A stretch of 36,344 bases of DNA from a virus (lineage: Duplodnaviria; Heunggongvirae; Uroviricota; Caudoviricetes): IMG/VR virus record IMGVR_UViG_2541047905_000018; one strand, 5' to 3'. Shown here in pieces: positions 3,590 to 34,938 of the stretch. The notes below the pieces were generated by a model that made no database searches, had not been told where the DNA came from, and saw nothing but the letters and a program-made list of their open reading frames with translations. Position numbers and translations under genes: made by a program. Positions within the stretch are counted from its first letter, which is position 1. Each line of letters starts with the position of its first letter.

Positions 3590-4189
3590 TCAGAACTTAT
3601 AACCGACACCCACGATGAAACTGTTGGTACGCCAGTCACCGCTGCCGGAGCCTTCATAAGCGACATCAATGGCCACGGATTCGGTCGGGTTAAACTGCAC
3701 GCCAGCTCCCCACGCCAGAGACGTGTTGCTGTGGCGACCGTCATCACTTCCGGTCAGCACATCGTGCTTTTTCCCCTTGTTGTCAGTTACGCGGAGATAA
3801 TCCCCGGAGAAAGTCGACACACGGCTGTAAGCCACACCCACCATCGCATACGCGCTGAACCATTCATTCACGCGTACAGACGGCCCCGCCATCACGCTGA
3901 ACCAGCGGTTACGCACGGAATCTTCATGCCAGCGGGTATCGCTGTAGTGCGTTTTTTGCTCATCCTCAGCATTGGCATAACTGAAGGACGTAATCAGCCC
4001 CAGCGCGTCCGTAAACTCATAACGGTATTTCACGTTAATCCCGTTCAGATTATCGCTGCCGGGAGCGTTCGTACGGGCATGAAGATACCCCGCGCTCAGT
4101 GTGGACTGATGTTCAGACGCCCATGCAGGCGCACCGGATACGGACAGACAGATGGCTGCGGACAAAATGGCTGCACATAATTTACGCAT
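3590..4189 (-). CDS. lom: Lom/Ail/OmpX-family outer membrane protein
   Basis: 199 aa with a signal peptide (MRKLCAAILSAAICLSVSGAPAWA) and beta-barrel strands ending ...GVGYKF. Same position as lambda lom, after J. Confidence 0.9.
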   Translation of the reverse strand: MRKLCAAILSAAICLSVSGAPAWASEHQSTLSAGYLHARTNAPGSDNLNGINVKYRYEFTDALGLITSFSYANAEDEQKTHYSDTRWHEDSVRNRWFSVMAGPSVRVNEWFSAYAMVGVAYSRVSTFSGDYLRVTDNKGKKHDVLTGSDDGRHSNTSLAWGAGVQFNPTESVAIDVAYEGSGSGDWRTNSFIVGVGYKF

Positions 4190-4213
4190 AATTACCTCTC
4201 GCTTTTCTGCAAT

Positions 4214-4237
4214 AAAAAAGGCGCCATTTCTGGCGCC
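4214..4237 (-). terminator. rho-independent terminator after J
   Basis: The minus strand reads GGCGCCA-gaaa-TGGCGCC followed by T6. Confidence 0.6.
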
Positions 4238-4256
4238 CGTATATGGGTTATAAAAT

Positions 4257-7200
4257 TCAGCTAATCGTGATGCCTGCAGTGGCTTTCTTCATCACAACAA
4301 CCAGCAAATCGCTGATACTTGCTGTGGGATACCAGCCATTTACCCACCATGCTGATACAGAAAACTCCAGCGTCATGTCGCCGCGACCAGCAGGCATATT
4401 AATAACACCACTGTAAACCAGCGTATTATCCAGCGCGGTACGGTTATAAATTTCAGCACCGTTTTTCTTCACTATCAGGCGGCATGACGAATAAGTATCG
4501 CTGTTCTCCTGCTCATGTCTGGCACCGCTGAAAGCCACCGCCGGAATAACAATCTGCCGGTTAAACGGCTGATCGTCATAAACCCTGACGGTAATGGTTC
4601 CTGATGGCCAACGCTTCGGTGCACGGGAGTCACGAGGGAAAGCCTTACCCACTGTTTTAACGAGATCGCCTTCAATCTGGTTTGCAGACAGTTTCCCTCT
4701 GATGACACAGTTCTCGTTAATGGTGACATTATTGAGCGTGCCGGTATTCGCCGTGATGGCTCCACTGATATCCGCATTGCGGGCTGTCAGCCTGCCATCC
4801 GGCGTCAGGGAAAACGTCGGAGGATTGCCGGATGACGTGATGCTCACCGCAAACAGTCGCTTCAGGAACACGTCGTTCATGAACAGCTGATTCCCCTGCG
4901 CCACAAATAACGGCGTGGTGTTACCGTTCTCCGGGGTAATCATCGCAATGCGATCGGCCTGCAGCAGAATGTTACTCAGCGTCTGACCATCAACATCCTC
5001 AATCCCCGCGCCAATCCCGGCCACATAGGGAATACCGTTTTTTGTTTTCTGCACCTTCAGCATATACATGGCATTCAGCTCATTGCGCGTGTCTGACTGA
5101 ACCCGCTGGATTTGCTGTATGGTCACGGCCTGGTCACCCAGCTTTTTATCCGTGGTCGAGGTAATTTCACTCCCTTTTTTATCCACGTACTGGCGGACCT
5201 GTGCTATCTGTCGGGCGTTTTCTGACTGCCCCTGGCTGACAGTCTGTGAGATTTCACTGCTCACCCGGTCCACTTTCTGGCTCACCTGCGCGATGGCCAG
5301 TGTCTGGTCCTCATTCTTTTTCGCAACCAGCTGCGTGAGGCTGTTTTCCGCCTTCCCGATTTTCCGGGTCACTTCTGCGATATCCGTGTCCATCCGCTGA
5401 CGGATATCTTCTTCCAGTTGCGTGACCTCCGTACGCAGCGCTGAAGCATCAATGCGCTCTTTCAGTGCCTGACCCAGAAGCGTCTCATCTATCAGCCCCC
5501 GGAAAATTTCCAGATACCCTTCACCATCATTGCTGGGCTGCCCGCTGGCTTCCACAAAAGCAGATTTTCCCACCAGGTTGACGCTTCGCACGTAAAACCA
5601 GAAATCCGTCCCCGGCTTAATCCGGCTCCCCTGGACAGTCCACTGACTGCCGGTCCCCAGATAACGGGCAGATTTTTCCACCTGTGCTGTGTTCGTGATG
5701 CGTTTTTCTGAGAACCAGAATTCAAACTGTACCGTCGGGTCATACACCGCAAGACGCGGGACCGCCGTTATCTGAAAATACCCCGGCGTCAGCTCAATGG
5801 TGGCGGGTTTTGCAGGTGCGTTAATCCGGAACGATACCGACGCCGGATCGCCCTGCTGTCCCCGGGCATTTACCGCCCGGACCGTCAGCGTGTAACGCCC
5901 CAGCGGCAGGCCGCTGAAACGGTGCTCCGTGTCTGCGGTGATGGCGGTGGTCACCAGTCTGGCATCCGTTCCCTTACCACTGGTCAGGCGCAGACTGAAG
6001 CGCACGCCCTTCACCACCTTCGGCGTGTCCCAGCGCGCCAGCACCTGATATTCCCCGCTGTCTGCGGTGACTTCGGCGGTCAGGTGCTGCACCGCTGGCG
6101 GCGTGACACCATTCACCGTGCCGCTCTGGTCGCCGTCAAAGTGCGCCCCGTTATCCACGATGGCCTCTTTTGCCGGTACATGCTGCACGGCGGTGATGGC
6201 ATACGTACCGTCGTCATTCTCACGGATATTCACACAGCGGAACAGGCGCTGGCGCAGCGTCGGCAGCTTCAGCCCCCACACGCTGTATTCAGCAACACCG
6301 TCAGGAACACGGCTCACTTTTACCTTCACGCCGTCGGTGACGGACTGAACCTCCACGCTGACCGGATTGCCACTTCCGTCAACCAGGCTTATCAGCGTGG
6401 TACCGGAGGATGGCAGCGTGATTTCACGGTCGAGCGTCAGTGTCCGCGTCTGGCTGTTCACCGCCAGCACGCGCCCGCCGGTGCTGATACCCGCATAGTC
6501 ATCATCACAGATTTCAATAACATCGCCCGGTACATGGCGAAGCCCTTCTGCGCCCACGCTGAAGTCCACGGTCTGCGTTTCCAGCAGCTCCGTTTTAATC
6601 AGCCACAGCCCGGCGCGGTGTGCCTGCCCCCGGCTGGTACAGCCAAAGGCATCCATCTTCGTGACGTTACGACCGTAACGGGCAATGGCCTGCGTATCTT
6701 CAACAAGCTCTGTCGCCGTCTCCCAGCCGTTATCCGGGTCAATCCAGTTCACCTCAACGGCATTATGGCGGTCCTTCAGGGCGCTGAAGCTGTAGCGGAA
6801 CGGCGCGCCATCATCCGGCATCACCACATTACTGCGGTTATAGGTCCACACCTTATCTGATGGCCGGTCCTGCACGAACGTCAGCGTCTGCCCGTTCCAT
6901 ACCGGCATACAGCGCATCGCCGAGCAGAAATCACTGAGCACATCCCACGCCTTGCGCTGTGTGGTCAGGTACGCATTACAGGTGATGCGCGGCTCCGTGC
7001 CGCCAAAGCCGTCCGGCACTGACTGGTCGCAGTACTGGCCGATGACATACAGCGCCCATTTGTCCACATCCGCCGCACCAAGACGTTTCCCCATGCCGTA
7101 GCGTGGATGGGTCAGCATATCCCACAGACACCAGGCCATGTTATTGCTGTATGCTGGCTTAAACGTTCCGTCCCAGATACCGCTGTATTGCCGAGTCTGC

Positions 7201-22282: not shown

Positions 22283-22798
22283 ATGGATAAAACCAGAAAA
22301 TATGACAGAGCCTTACAACTTGAAATCCTCAATGCCCTTATAGATTGCGCGCCTAACTCTTTAAACAAGGCACAGGAGCGAGACCTCATTGAGAAGTTTG
22401 ACAGTTACGATCACTTTGTGGCGTGCATGTTATACCTTGAAATGCATGGTCTCGTTTCCACCCCCTTCATACGCAGTGACACCATGGCTGGCGTTGAGTT
22501 TATCTTCTGTGCCCCTAACTGCTACATTACAGAAAAAGGAATTGATTTTCTTCTCGATGATGGCGGCTTAAGTGCGATCCTTAAAGTTCAGACCTTTCGG
22601 TTACACAGTGACACGATTGTTGCCCTTGAGGATATAATCCGTGTCGCAAATATATCTGAAGATCAGAAGAAGGGATTGATTTCAAAACTCCGAGAGCTTC
22701 CGGGAGACGCCATAAAACATTTGACCCTACAGTTACTGACTCAGGGGGTTCTGAATCTGCCGAACGCACTTCGACTAATTCAAACAACCCTCCAGTAG
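22283..22798 (+). CDS. unknown 171-aa protein, winged-helix-like N-terminal half (copy A1 of a duplicated module)
   Basis: Paralogue of the ORF at 33611-34114 (shared blocks YLE.HGL, IT..GIDF..DDGGL.AIL, LR.LP.DAIK.LT..LL.QG...LP....IQ..L). It lies opposite to the late operon. GGAG sits 8 nt upstream of the ATG. Confidence 0.7.
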   Translation: MDKTRKYDRALQLEILNALIDCAPNSLNKAQERDLIEKFDSYDHFVACMLYLEMHGLVSTPFIRSDTMAGVEFIFCAPNCYITEKGIDFLLDDGGLSAILKVQTFRLHSDTIVALEDIIRVANISEDQKKGLISKLRELPGDAIKHLTLQLLTQGVLNLPNALRLIQTTLQ

Positions 22799-22937
22799 GG
22801 CTAAACTCATCTGAGGGGCGAATTAACTCAAATTTGCCCCATCCCAGTTTTTCACTTAAAACAACCCAAAATCCCTCCCGGGTATCTGCATGAATATAGA
22901 AACTATTTTTATGCATTACAGCAGTGAATATTATCAT
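22581..22937 (-). CDS. unknown small protein (copy B1 of a duplicated module), translationally coupled to HNH
   Basis: Its ATG at 22937 overlaps the HNH stop (ATGA). The first ~77 aa are paralogous to the ORF at 33478-33771 (FW..LS...GWG.F.LIRP..EF...GGLFEL.E.R.AD...P..V..S.VLWR). Its 3' 218 nt overlap A1 on the opposite strand, and the true stop is uncertain. Confidence 0.55.
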   Translation of the reverse strand: MIIFTAVMHKNSFYIHADTREGFWVVLSEKLGWGKFELIRPSDEFSPTGGLFELVEVRSADSEPPESVTVGSNVLWRLPEALGVLKSIPSSDLQIYLRHGLYPQGQQSCHCVTERSEL

Positions 22938-23284
22938 CGAATACGTTCCCTTGCTGTCTTCTCTCTGTGGCATTCCCTGCATAACGACTCAAGATTGGAG
23001 TCATCATCGGTGCCGCCATGAGCTTTTGGAATCATGTGGTCTACAGTCCTGGCCTCAACGGCTCGTCCATTGCGCAGACAGTTCTTACACAGATGGTTAT
23101 CACGCTTCAGTATACGCGCACGTATAACATCCCATTTCGAGCCATAGCCACGCTGGTGGCGACTCAGTCCGCGTTGATGCTGTACCCATCCTTCACCACG
23201 ATGTTTATCGCAGTAACCAGAACTGTCTGTGGTTGTACCTGCGCATCCACGCTTACGGCAGGCACGTGGGATTCGTGATGGCAT
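22934..23284 (-). CDS. HNH endonuclease (terminase-associated)
   Basis: 116 aa with ...VDHMIPKAHGGTDDDSNLESLCRECHREKT... and Cys-rich flanks. HNH enzymes are the usual partner of HK97/P27-type terminases. Confidence 0.9.
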   Translation of the reverse strand: MPSRIPRACRKRGCAGTTTDSSGYCDKHRGEGWVQHQRGLSRHQRGYGSKWDVIRARILKRDNHLCKNCLRNGRAVEARTVDHMIPKAHGGTDDDSNLESLCRECHREKTARERIR

Positions 23285-25101: not shown

Positions 25102-25107
25102 GCATGT

Positions 25108-25137
25108 AAAAAGGCCCCAACACATGTGCGTGGGGCC
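25108..25137 (-). terminator. rho-independent terminator closing the 230-nt ORF-less unit downstream of the tRNAs
   Basis: The minus strand reads GGCCCCA-cgcacatgtgt-TGGGGCC followed by T5. Confidence 0.6.
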
Positions 25138-25167
25138 TGAGAGTATACATGGTTTCAGTCAACTGCA

Positions 25168-25189
25168 TGGTGCCGGGTGCCTCCCGGTG
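25168..25189 (-). repeat. 22-nt element CACCGGGAGGCACCCGGCACCA (copy 1, sense in the late transcript)
   Basis: Exact 22/22 match to 34354-34375 on the plus strand. It contains a CCGGG-aggca-CCCGG hairpin and tandem GGCACC. Confidence 0.8.
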
Positions 25190-25337
25190 AATTCAGTACC
25201 AGCACCTGAATCCGCGATTATCCCATATACCTACTCGCTGATTGCCCATCCGCACAGGGGGATTCACCATGCCAGTTTCTTTTAACAAACTCCCCGCAAA
25301 ACAGACAACTGTCAACCGTCTGAATTGTGAGACATTT

Positions 25338-25377: not shown

Positions 25378-25454
25378 TGGCGCGTTGTACTGGATTCGAA
25401 CCAGTGACCGATTGCTTAGAAGGCAATTGCTCTGTCCGGTTGAGCTAACAACGC
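25378..25454 (-). tRNA. tRNA-Arg (anticodon UCU)
   Basis: I folded the cloverleaf by hand: acceptor GCGTTGT/ACAACGC, D arm GCTC..GAGC, anticodon arm ATTGC-CTTCTAA-GCAAT, T arm ACTGG-TTCGAAT-CCAGT, CCA encoded. Confidence 0.9.
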
Positions 25455-25467
25455 AGGGTACAGATAA

Positions 25468-25544
25468 TGGACCGCCATCGAGGACTCGAACCCCGCGCAA
25501 CCAGCTTCGAAGGCTGGTGCTCTATCCTGATGAGCTAATGGCGG
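25468..25544 (-). tRNA. tRNA-Arg (anticodon UCG)
   Basis: Cloverleaf: acceptor CCGCCAT/ATGGCGG, anticodon arm CCAGC-CTTCGAA-GCTGG, T arm CGGGG-TTCGAGT-CCTCG, CCA encoded. Confidence 0.85.
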
Positions 25545-25551
25545 TATGTGA

Positions 25552-25627
25552 TGGTGGCCCTTGCTGGATTTGAACCAGCGACCTGGCGATTATGAGTCGC
25601 TCGCTCTCACCACTGAGCTAAAGGGCC
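25552..25627 (-). tRNA. tRNA with CAU anticodon (Met, or Ile2 if lysidine-modified; the ileZ-like position of Stx phages)
   Basis: Cloverleaf: acceptor GGCCCTT/AAGGGCC, anticodon arm GCGA-CTCATAA-TCGC, T arm GCTGG-TTCAAAT-CCAGC, CCA encoded. Confidence 0.85.
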
Positions 25628-31053: not shown

Positions 31054-31330
31054 AGTGACAGCCCCGGTAGTCAGTTTTTTAGAAAACTCACCACATGGGA
31101 CGCCAATCACAGAGGTGGTGAGACGTACAGGGTTGGCGTTACCGGAGACTACCGAACCCGGCCCGACCGAAGTCGGCCCTGTACGCCCCACCATAATTTG
31201 GGCGTAGCAATGCTCATGACACGAAAAAACCGCATGAGCGCGGTTATGCTCAGTAATCAATTTCAGGACGCCAATCCCGGCAACGGATTTTGCCGCTGCC
31301 AGAACAATATAACGCCCAGAATTATCAGAA
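31054..31330 (-). promoter_or_regulatory. highly structured leader with intrinsic terminators upstream of rha and the replication gene (tR1-like region)
   Basis: On the minus strand: AACCGC-gctcat-GCGGTT followed by T6 (31224-31245); TACGCCC...GGGCGTA; a 9-bp stem CGTACAGGG/CCCTGTACG enclosing CCGAC-UUCG-GUCGG; and CTCACCAC...GTGGTGAG followed by TTTTCT (31081-31122). Confidence 0.55.
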
Positions 31331-33409: not shown

Positions 33410-33432
33410 AAAAAAGCGCCCTACAGGACGCT
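33410..33432 (-). terminator. minus-strand terminator beyond the 5' end of the 97-aa gene (would end the A2 transcript)
   Basis: The minus strand reads AGCGTCC-tgtag-GGCGCT (one bulged base) followed by T6. Confidence 0.5.
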
Positions 33433-33477
33433 TAGCTCTTTAACAATCTTGGTATCCCCGTAACAAAAGAGGGTTCT

Positions 33478-33771
33478 ATGGTCATATTCTGTGCTTACGT
33501 TCATCCTAATGGATTTTTTATCAGCACCAACCAACAAGACGAATTCTGGATTCTACTTAGTAAGCAGGTCGGATGGGGACGATTCTGTCTAATCCGACCA
33601 GAATCAGAATTTACAGAGAATGGAGGGCTTTTTGAATTACGTGAAATACGTCCGGCAGATGGTCAAGCCCCTGACCAAGTAATCGAATCGTCAGCTGTTT
33701 TATGGCGTCGGCAGGAAGCGTTCGAAGCTGAGAGAGTAATTTCTTCTTATCTTCAGTCGTGGCAGAAGTAG
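33478..33771 (+). CDS. unknown 97-aa protein (copy B2 of the duplicated module), first ORF after pL
   Basis: GAGGG SD 5 nt upstream. Paralogue of 22581-22937. Differences between the copies in the non-overlapped part fall mainly at third codon positions. Confidence 0.65.
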   Translation: MVIFCAYVHPNGFFISTNQQDEFWILLSKQVGWGRFCLIRPESEFTENGGLFELREIRPADGQAPDQVIESSAVLWRRQEAFEAERVISSYLQSWQK

Positions 33772-34114
33772 AACTATTGATGATACGTTCAAGTTCACAG
33801 AGAGTCTCATCATGCAATCTTATTGTCATAATCCCAAGAATAGCTTTAAGACCTCCATCATCACGAATGAAATCAATTCCATCTTTAGTAATTCTTAATT
33901 CAGGAATATTTATATTTATGCCATCCAAGTAATAATCAAGAGCATTCTTAATCAAGCCATGTTCTTCGAGATAAATTAAGTTCGAAATTAGGACATTATC
34001 ATCTCCAAATGCGTCACGAACAGACTGCAACGCATCATCAGAAATTTCATAAGGATGAGCATCATACAGTATTTGTAACAACTGCCTTTGTGCACTTCTA
34101 TCAAATTTGTCCAT
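33611..34114 (-). CDS. unknown 167-aa protein, winged-helix-like N-terminal half (copy A2 of the duplicated module)
   Basis: Paralogue of 22283-22798. It is convergent with B2 and overlaps it by 161 nt. A candidate promoter TTGATA-16 nt-GATTAT ends 5 nt before the ATG, so the mRNA may be leaderless. Confidence 0.7.
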   Translation of the reverse strand: MDKFDRSAQRQLLQILYDAHPYEISDDALQSVRDAFGDDNVLISNLIYLEEHGLIKNALDYYLDGININIPELRITKDGIDFIRDDGGLKAILGIMTIRLHDETLCELERIINSSTSATTEDKKKLLSQLRTLPADAIKQLTIRLLGQGLDHLPDVFHVIQKALHSL

Positions 34115-34353
34115 CTTAAATAATCACCATGTTATTGGGGGTATCAAGATTAACCGAATCCTTGTTGTTGGGGAATAACCAGGTCCACCTCGCCTGATGT
34201 GGCTAAAAGCAGGCACATAACAGCTAAGTATTTTCAACCAGAGAGAATCCTTAGCGTTGTGGTGAATGCGGCTCAGCGCACGCGGGTTAAGGTTGAGGCT
34301 GACAGTCGACCTTCTGTGGATACCCACCCGCCTGGTGTGCAACCTTCGCCAGG

Positions 34354-34375
34354 CACCGGGAGGCACCCGGCACCA
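34354..34375 (+). repeat. 22-nt element CACCGGGAGGCACCCGGCACCA (copy 2, sense in the pL transcript)
   Basis: Exact reverse-complement match to 25168-25189. It lies about 15 nt upstream of the DicF-like sequence. Confidence 0.8.
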
Positions 34376-34438
34376 CAACAGCCACTGCTTTGGCGGTACC
34401 AGTTTGTACACTTGCTTCCGGCTGGTACCGCTCTTTTT
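34375..34438 (+). ncRNA. dicF: DicF-like small RNA with its own terminator
   Basis: TTTGGCGGTACCAGTTTGTAC matches the K-12 DicF core TTTGGCGGTATCAGTTTTAC at 18 of 20 positions. It ends in GCGGTACCAG...CTGGTACCGC followed by TCTTTTT. The synteny (repressor, pL, small ORFs, dicF) matches the Qin dicB operon. The 5' end is not determinable from sequence. Confidence 0.65.
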
Positions 34439-34527
34439 ACAAAACAGAGAAGAGCATCACCGGACGACGGGCTCATAACCCAATCCATCCGGGCGGCTGC
34501 CACCGCAGGTGTTCTTCTCTGTTTTGT
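34439..34527 (+). repeat. long inverted repeat (15-bp perfect stem ACAAAACAGAGAAGA / TCTTCTCTGTTTTGT) directly after the DicF-like terminator
   Basis: Read directly from the sequence. The arms enclose about 59 nt containing further GC hairpins. It is a candidate RNase III processing stem, which is inference. Confidence 0.6.
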
Positions 34528-34575
34528 GGAGAAACCAACCGACCTTGCAGGGTCGATATGATGAGGAGCAGCAAA

Positions 34576-34938
34576 ATGGCTAGCGAACGCAGTACTGATG
34601 TGCAGGCATTTATCGGGGAGCTGGACGGCGGCGTATTTGAAACCAAAATCGGCGCAGTTCTCAGTGAAGTCGCTTCCGGTGTGATGAACACGAAAACCAA
34701 AGGTAAGGTCTCGCTCAACCTGGAAATCGAACCGTTTGATGAGAACCGTGTGAAAATCAAACACAAACTCTCATATGTTCGCCCGACTAACCGCGGGAAA
34801 ATTTCTGAAGAAGACACCACCGAAACGCCGATGTATGTCAATCGCGGTGGTCGCCTGACTATTCTGCAGGAAGACCAGGGACAATTACTGACTCTTGCCG
34901 GTGAGCCTGACGGAAAACTCCGCGCAGCAGGTCATTAA
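34576..34938 (+). CDS. yfdP: YfdP-like protein
   Basis: 120 aa from the ATG at 34576 (GAGGAG SD 6 nt upstream). I recognise the sequence and size as CPS-53 YfdP-like, and it is followed by yfdQ and yfdR homologues. Confidence 0.7.
   Translation: MASERSTDVQAFIGELDGGVFETKIGAVLSEVASGVMNTKTKGKVSLNLEIEPFDENRVKIKHKLSYVRPTNRGKISEEDTTETPMYVNRGGRLTILQEDQGQLLTLAGEPDGKLRAAGH

Follow-up and report, generated by a model that had tools for sequence, protein, structure and literature searches.

Evidence for antisense dual coding in a two-gene accessory cassette of a lambdoid Escherichia coli prophage

The virus record IMGVR_UViG_2541047905_000018 (Caudoviricetes), a DNA of 36,344 nucleotides (nt) referred to below as the window, is a lambdoid Escherichia coli prophage. 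It carries two diverged copies of a convergent gene pair, named here A and B, in which the open reading frame (ORF) of B extends far into the 3' end of A on the opposite strand. The genes of locus 1 are designated A1 and B1 and those of locus 2 A2 and B2; their coordinates are collected in Table 1 with those of the stretches and neighbouring features discussed below. A1 and A2 share 39% and B1 and B2 48% of their amino acids (aa), while DNA identity between the loci is about 52% by a script estimate and a tool alignment over a wider region gives a mean column identity of 74%. B1 was taken as a 118-aa protein rather than the whole 133-aa ORF, because its homologues begin at the methionine encoded at 22937 (M(K/I)IF) and because the sequence ATGA combines this start codon with the stop codon that ends the HNH endonuclease gene upstream.

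Table 1. Coordinates of the two A/B gene pairs, of their overlapping stretches and of neighbouring features in the 36,344-nt window
Feature	Coordinates	Strand	Remarks
A1	22283..22798	+	171 aa; phrog_3983; N-terminal winged-helix domain, C-terminal helical region
B1, whole ORF	22581-22982	-	133 aa
B1, from ATG at 22937	22581..22937	-	118 aa
A2	33611..34114	-	167 aa; paralogue of A1; phrog_3983 (E=2.6e-59); RefSeq WP_000357060.1, hypothetical protein
B2	33478..33771	+	97 aa; paralogue of B1; AGAGGG 5-6 nt before ATG; no RefSeq coding sequence
Dual-coding stretch of locus 1, joint constraint	22658..22798	both	A1 codons 126-171 and stop; B1 residues 47-94
Additional C-terminal tail of B1, residues 95-118	22581..22657	-	Open opposite A1 codons 100-125; no sign of constraint
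Dual-coding stretch of locus 2, 161 nt	33611..33771	both	A2 codons 115-167 and stop; B2 residues 45-97
HNH endonuclease gene	22934..23284	-	ORF; RefSeq label HNH endonuclease; directly upstream of B1 and co-oriented
Terminator-like hairpin followed by T-run	33414..33433	- (A2 strand)	Consensus scan only; downstream of A2, upstream of B2 start

The two ORFs overlap by 218 nt in locus 1 (22581-22798) and by 161 nt in locus 2 (33611-33771). In both loci codon position 1 of A faces position 1 of B, position 2 faces position 3 and position 3 faces position 2 (overlap length modulo 3 = 2), and the same register was found in every further locus examined. This arrangement has been named convergent 'phase 1' and is favoured among overlaps longer than 4 nt (bioRxiv 10.1101/2025.11.07.687268). 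According to site counts it leaves essentially no site that is synonymous in both genes, so that nearly every synonymous change in one gene alters the protein encoded by the other. The original prediction of antiparallel dual coding in an identical register in both copies is borne out by the coordinates, by the wider set of loci and by independent tests. The extent of about 100 nt given there (22707-22798 and 33611-33711) covers only the stretch back to the VLWR motif of B, whereas the ORFs overlap by 161-218 nt, about 140 nt of which are dually constrained. The codon strings and peptides quoted in its support are present as written, but those for A are shifted by one base against those for B and are not exact reverse complements of them.

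The tails of the two B proteins had been described as completely diverged after VLWR, and this has to be corrected. BLAST aligns B1 with B2 through residue 105 of the 133-aa ORF, which corresponds to residue 90 of the 118-aa B1 and of B2; the tails LPEALGVLKSIPSSDLQ of B1 and RQEAFEAERVISSYLQ of B2 align, and the family is conserved to about residue 94. The family-wide motif reads FW..LG..GWGRF ... FELVE ... P.P.V ... VLW.R.EA.EA..I..Y. The B2 tail, RRQEAFEAERVISSYLQ, fits this motif and represents the family consensus, and the prophage carries members of two subfamilies, the B1 type with RLPEALEVLKS and the B2 type with RRQEA.EAE. An exhaustive profile search resolved the B family into 90 clusters (50% identity), and the majority of its full-length members match over the positions encoded in the overlap. 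In the four GenBank/RefSeq records examined, including that of Escherichia phage PhiR49_2, A alone is annotated and B is not, its N-terminal half falling into what looks like an intergenic gap; one gene of the pair is routinely overlooked in genome annotation.

Relatives were fetched through A, which gave 21 genome loci and 80 viral-contig loci (loci mentioned individually carry L numbers), and loci with a distant B were obtained by searching viral contigs with a narrow alignment of B members. A convergent B ORF is open in all 27 diverged representatives (50-95% nucleotide identity) and reaches 128-230 nt into A in one register. A is of nearly constant length in these representatives (166-174 aa), and B varies from 89 to 119 aa, with stop codons at differing positions, none of them less than 42 codons into A. 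A Shine-Dalgarno-like motif precedes the B start by 6-16 nt in 22 of 28 representatives. The search with distant B yielded 24 further unique lineages, the most distant with 31% identity to B2 and the whole set ranging from 40 to 62% in guanine-plus-cytosine (GC) content, all of which have a convergent A and an overlap of 161-221 nt in the same register. Counted as distinct intact pairs, from Enterobacterales to GC-rich hosts and with B down to 31% identity, 50 of 50 show the convergent overlap of 128-230 nt in this register. Two Pseudomonas loci missed by tblastn also contain a B-like convergent ORF, the non-overlapping part of which has a proportion of synonymous differences (pS) of 0.73 and of non-synonymous differences (pN) of 0.26. 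A B frame broken inside the overlap, which had been named as evidence that would speak against dual coding, never occurs together with an intact full-length B; stops were found only where B is absent or decayed (L103, L010 and L100).

The chance that such a frame stays open was estimated by recoding the last 42 codons of A synonymously with the codon usage of the family itself. The B frame remained open in 0.1-1.6% of the trials (geometric mean 0.3%), compared with 27 of 27 actual representatives. Codon choice in A is unusually conserved over the same stretch, since the fraction of identical codons among pairs with the same residue is 0.42 for codons 5-95 and 0.43 for codons 96-129, and rises to 0.75-0.77 for codons 130-170 (Mann-Whitney p=4e-10). 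Measured in 13 moderately diverged, sequence-disjoint pairs, pS amounted to 0.34 for A codons 5-95, 0.29 for A codons 96-125, 0.053 for A codons 126-170 and 0.37 for B residues 2-46. It was lower in the overlap in every one of the 13 pairs (Wilcoxon p=1.2e-4), a drop of about 6-fold, or of about 9-fold when expressed as the Jukes-Cantor ratio of synonymous rates (dS) between overlap and rest (~0.11). The trough is flanked by normal values on both sides, and its inner edge, near A codon 126, coincides with the end of the conserved part of B at about residue 94. An independent deep clade shows the same jump in identical-codon fraction, from 0.45 to 0.76-0.86, centred on LRSLPADATKHL in A and on VLWRRQAAIEA in B.

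Individual codons are fixed accordingly among 63 unique B-containing sequences. Where the A motif AIKH has its isoleucine, the codon is ATA in 46 of 46 cases, as ATT or ATC would place TAA or TGA in the B frame; threonine at this position is encoded by ACA in 15 of 17. The lysine of the motif is AAA in 55 of 55, and the codon facing the middle base of the tryptophan codon of B is NCC in 62 of 63. In locus 1 these frozen codons read GCC-ATA-AAA (22709-22717). They persist in hosts of 58-62% GC, where they are disfavoured. In contrast, the A homologues that lack B (L015, L017, L018, L022, L023, L093 and L103) are interrupted in the B register by 3-5 stops within their final 45 codons, and ATC, CTG or AAG occupy the sites of the frozen codons; within the B-less subfamily, five of six pairs have the same pS at the C-terminus (0.70-0.79) as over the remainder of the gene.

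Outside the overlap B evolves as an ordinary protein-coding gene, with a pN/pS of about 0.12 over residues 2-46, close to the 0.10 of A, in agreement with the earlier view of B as a real protein rather than a shadow of A. Inside it, an OLGenie-style test, of the kind proposed with the original prediction for both frames, gave for A a dNN/dSN ratio (changes non-synonymous in both frames relative to those synonymous in A only) of 0.57, with a 95% confidence interval (CI) of 0.43-0.74, and hence purifying selection on A; the corresponding ratio for B was not significant and is taken up below. Opposite the extra tail of B1 (22581-22657), synonymous variation in A is at the level of the non-overlapping gene (identical-codon fraction 0.43; pS 0.29 versus 0.34). 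Constrained dual coding therefore extends over about 140 nt in locus 1 (22658-22798) and over the whole of 33611-33771 in locus 2, and only the last 24 residues of B1 look unconstrained. Purifying selection on both A and B was found within the overlap, with the caveat for B of its non-significant dNN/dNS.

Both proteins and the members of their alignments were searched against Pfam, NCBIfam, PADLOC and PHROGs. The sole match was that of A to phrog_3983, a PHROG family without known function; B matched no family in these four collections, and A none in Pfam, NCBIfam or PADLOC, its Pfam matches to MarR and YjcQ falling below threshold. The C-terminal ~46 codons of A correspond to its C-terminal helices, including the motif LRELPADAIKHL, and these helices are conserved. 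Compared with winged-helix proteins of the MarR/YjcQ type, A lacks the MarR dimerisation helices and has a distinct C-terminal helical region, the one co-encoded with B. An AlphaFold2 model of B1 contains five beta strands within residues 3-58 with a pLDDT (predicted local distance difference test) score of about 90, and means of 84-93 per 10-residue block over residues 1-70; the last of the five (GLFELVEVR, residues 50-58) lies in the part of B that overlaps A, and the pLDDT drops below 50 for residues 100-118. B is accordingly predicted to be a small soluble beta-rich protein.

Several observations on A stand apart from these results. In profile searches of PDB sequences the sole match, a weak one, was that of residues 103-142 of A1 (22589-22708) to the B-domain repeats of staphylococcal protein A (E=2e-6; Pfam B domain E=0.007-0.1), which we did not take as homology since it probably reflects the resemblance of a three-helix bundle or helix-loop-helix. 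A subfamily of A found without B (L093, L015, L018 and L023; A at ~4001-4480) carries another C-terminal module, STLG(D/E)MPTEALKAVV, and L093 is a chimera in which an A1-like N-terminal winged helix is joined to the B-less C-terminus at a GIDF..DDGGL junction. The convergent neighbours of the L093-type subfamily include a 301-aa protein with a caspase-like H..G / QC.AG pattern discerned by eye; the neighbours of the B-less A homologues, this protein included, gave no Pfam match.

The two A/B pairs occupy different slots of the prophage. Locus 1, which is 99.9% identical to Escherichia phage PhiR49_2, lies between the lysis and HNH genes on one side and the small and large terminase genes on the other. 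Locus 2 lies directly downstream of a cI-like repressor gene and upstream of yfdP/yfdQ-like genes, flanks that are common to related phages, which hold different cargo between them. Among phages the position of the cassette varies in the same way, near the HNH and terminase genes, near the lysis genes or near cI. Its GC content is lower than that of the flanking genes (0.43 versus 0.52 in locus 1, and 0.39 versus 0.44-0.47 in locus 2), so that both marks of an accessory cassette (moron), a variable slot between conserved phage modules and a deviant base composition, were found. In 5426 complete E. coli genomes, locus 2 was present at a coverage of at least 80% in 76 and locus 1 in 28. Since 84% of the flanking long ORFs lie on the strand of B, B runs with phage transcription and A against it.

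Taken together, these data make it very probable that A and B are two real protein-coding genes of one mobile, low-GC prophage accessory cassette, and that their 3' ends use the same DNA on opposite strands. The final ~46 codons of A would double as the code for residues ~48-94 of B, which hold beta strand 5 (GGLFELVE), a linker and the VLW.R.EA.E motif, and purifying selection on both frames would keep the codon choice frozen. A number of observations weigh against this. In the OLGenie-style test, dNN/dNS for B was 0.88-0.99 in the overlap with CIs spanning 1, against 1.06-1.13 in control regions. In this register the test contrasts codon positions 1 and 2 of A and has low power; it neither supports nor excludes selection on B, which is a weakness of the case. 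Overlap sites that are synonymous in A vary more (0.31) than those that are non-synonymous in A (0.18-0.21), which makes A the more strongly constrained partner. B has been lost while A persists, through deletion of its N-terminal half in L010 and a frameshift upstream of the overlap in L100, and L103 has no B. The AlphaFold2 model of B is of low confidence after residue 70, no structural relative was found, and the PADLOC, Pfam and NCBIfam searches gave no family for either protein. Promoter-like matches are at chance level and the cassette is tied to no phenotype. Finally, we infer the translation of B, above all of its overlapping part, from the sequence.

It is improbable that only the first ~50-60 residues of B matter and that the remainder is an unselected frame in which VLW.R.EA merely mirrors the LRELPADAIKHL motif of A, even though the most conserved residues of B face the most conserved motif of A, the B ratio in the overlap is indistinguishable from 1, the last 24 residues of B1 are clearly unconstrained and the L010 remnant still reads NVLW despite its destroyed B gene. 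A mirror image cannot fix the wobble bases of A, yet GCC, ATA and AAA do not vary, GC-rich hosts included, and the ~6-fold drop in the pS of A reaches back to codon ~126 and no further. Nor does it account for a frame that is open by chance in ~0.3% of cases and is open in every intact B lineage, with no B ending less than 42 codons into A, whereas B-less A homologues with a similar motif use ATC or CTG-AAG and have stops.

Synonymous variation would also be lowered if the 3' end of A held a conserved element acting as RNA or DNA, be it a terminator, a small RNA target or an operator for the winged-helix protein, and convergent transcripts must terminate or interact hereabouts. We consider such an element very unlikely as the source of the constraint. 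A weak terminator-like hairpin does span the A1 stop codon (22785-22803), but hairpins are no more numerous than in shuffled sequence, neither locus has an Rfam match, alifold consensus energies of -1.3 and -1.8 kcal/mol give neither strand a conserved secondary structure, and single-sequence z-scores around 0 show no excess of folding energy. The constrained ~140 nt coincide with the B ORF, and the codon-specific pattern, in which stops are avoided and the tryptophan codon is kept, is not predicted by such an element. Repeated exchange or homogenisation of the cassette centre, which would make it younger than its flanks, has comparably little probability. Recombination does shape the divergence along the cassette in mosaic pairs, and this too belongs to the observations that weigh against dual coding. 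In the Pseudomonas loci L019 and L020 (~4275-4733; the last ~65 codons of A and the B overlap) the centre has a pS of 0.02 between flanks saturated at 0.72-0.73, and L015 and L093 have only the C-terminal module in common. However, each of the 13 independent pairs has normal pS to either side of the trough (A 96-125 and B 2-46), and pN/pS is ~0.32 inside versus 0.10 outside, as expected from depressed "synonymous" rates and not from recent exchange. The same codons are moreover fixed between clades at ~31-35% protein identity, and recombination leaves the avoidance of stops unexplained.

Given dual coding of A and B, the C-terminal half of B was probably overprinted on a pre-existing 3' end of A, followed by co-evolution of the two, because A occurs without B, because B lacks an intact A at a single locus (L014, where A is truncated to 100 aa), and because the C-terminal motif of A is also present in B-less homologues. 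As to function, we tentatively suggest that A may be a winged-helix nucleic-acid-binding or regulatory protein and B its small partner, and that their mutually antisense mRNAs might provide reciprocal control between lysogeny and the lytic cycle. A would be expressed from its own promoter against phage transcription, and B would be expressed with the phage operon, coupled to the HNH gene in the late operon at locus 1 and downstream of cI at locus 2. Each mRNA being antisense to the other, expression of one would damp the other, and the overlap would lock the pair as a unit and tie the co-evolving C-termini together. The ATG of B1 (22937-22935) overlaps the TGA of the HNH gene as ATGA (22934-22937), which suggests that the translation of B1 is coupled to the late operon. 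Since transcription of A2 would pass the B2 start before reaching the putative terminator hairpin, its RNA would be antisense to the whole of B2. Promoter-like and terminator-like sites are present in numbers no higher than in shuffled sequence.

A stronger and still more doubtful version of this proposal takes A and B as an obligate co-evolving pair whose core motifs, the LRELPADAIKHL helix of A and VLW.R.EA.EA of B, share ~60-140 nt, the overlap serving as a genetic interlock. Interacting C-termini would then be forced to co-vary, recombination would be kept from separating or mismatching the partners, and the fully antisense mRNAs would set A, in the lysogen, against B, in the phage operon. 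If true, the cassette would represent a switch between lysogeny and lytic growth, or a self-immunity device for a prophage-encoded exclusion function, of a new kind.

Known types of two-gene systems were considered and set aside. A type II toxin-antitoxin module was rejected since the genes converge instead of being co-directional and have no Pfam, NCBIfam or PADLOC match, and a type I module since B is predicted to be soluble and beta-rich, the antisense partner is a conserved gene for a 170-aa protein and no Rfam family was found. A known anti-phage defence system was discarded because PADLOC-DB 2.0 gave nothing for A1, B1 and B2 and a single weak match of A2 to a CARF model (E=0.013).

The bacterial antiparallel pairs with experimental support are few and include dmdR1/adm of Streptomyces coelicolor, Pfl_0939/iiv14 of Pseudomonas fluorescens and the antisense overlapping genes of E. 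coli O157:H7 (bioRxiv 10.1101/724807, PMC9927249). They resemble A/B in that proteins are encoded on opposite strands over more than 100 nt and that the second gene is missed by annotation pipelines. They differ in that one ORF is nearly wholly embedded in a longer, older gene and is usually narrowly conserved, whereas A and B overlap only at their 3' ends, each retains a non-overlapping part under ordinary purifying selection, and the arrangement is kept across a deep family, down to 31% identity. Conversely, the known pairs are based on protein-level evidence, while A/B is known from sequence. Short convergent overlaps in prokaryotes have the same orientation and phase, but typically involve between a few and some tens of bases at unimportant termini, in contrast to the 128-230 nt of A/B, which take in a structural beta strand of B as well as the best conserved motif of either protein.

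In phage lambda, bor lies antisense to the late operon and rexAB lies downstream of cI. The A/B cassettes are found in matching slots, with low GC content, variable presence and one gene running against phage transcription. Unlike A/B, bor and rexAB are not known to have an antisense coding overlap, and they have no sequence or family relationship to A or B.

For bacteria and their phages, hardly any long antisense overlap with selection demonstrated on both frames is on record. In 929 surveyed genomes, pairs whose two members are both under negative selection were almost absent, and essentially one candidate was credible (bioRxiv 10.1101/724807), in agreement with the rarity assumed when A/B was first noticed, and the literature on the RefSeq accession of A2 and on overlapping genes gave no description of the A/B family. 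A/B would accordingly be a rare and well-supported case of antisense dual coding. It offers a natural test case, with non-overlapping parts as internal controls, dozens of diverged lineages and natural knock-outs, and single-base changes can silence either A or B with the other protein unchanged. B exposes a conserved protein family of at least 90 clusters at 50% identity that was left unannotated in the records examined, and A illustrates the freezing of rare codons, ATA among them, by dual coding also where the host is GC-rich. The pair also flags an uncharacterised two-gene cargo in classic prophage slots, sometimes present twice in one prophage.

Some further features of the surroundings were observed. 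The adjacency of HNH and B recurs in L028 and L072. The GenBank record of PhiR49_2 (L001 3894-4079; PV340570.1 17749-17934) has a hypothetical coding sequence of 61 aa opposite the HNH ORF, which is itself unannotated; as RefSeq has HNH at the equivalent place, the 61-aa coding sequence is probably a strand mis-call. Phage Kati (L002 860-1487), vB_EcoM-689R6 and vB_EcoS-569R4 hold another convergent pair in the slot downstream of cI, one gene of 73 aa on the strand of cI and one of 144 aa on the other; the 3' ends overlap by 29 nt, and the pair has no Pfam family and no similarity to A or B. At 34124-34938 (also L002 1406-2318, common to phage Kati), several long ORFs on the two strands overlap one another, among them 34273-34764 (-, 163 aa), 34390-34938 (+, 182 aa) and 34199-34561 (+, 120 aa). 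Three phage tRNA genes are located at 25378-25627, Arg-tct, Arg-tcg and one with the anticodon cat, which we take to be a possible tRNA-Ile2 reading ATA, as in Shiga toxin (Stx) phages; an ATA-reading tRNA deserves mention beside a dual-coding stretch that forces this rare codon in A. Elsewhere in the prophage (25102-25301 and 31111-31299), Rfam matches were obtained to the small RNA STnc100, C4 antisense RNA and isrK.

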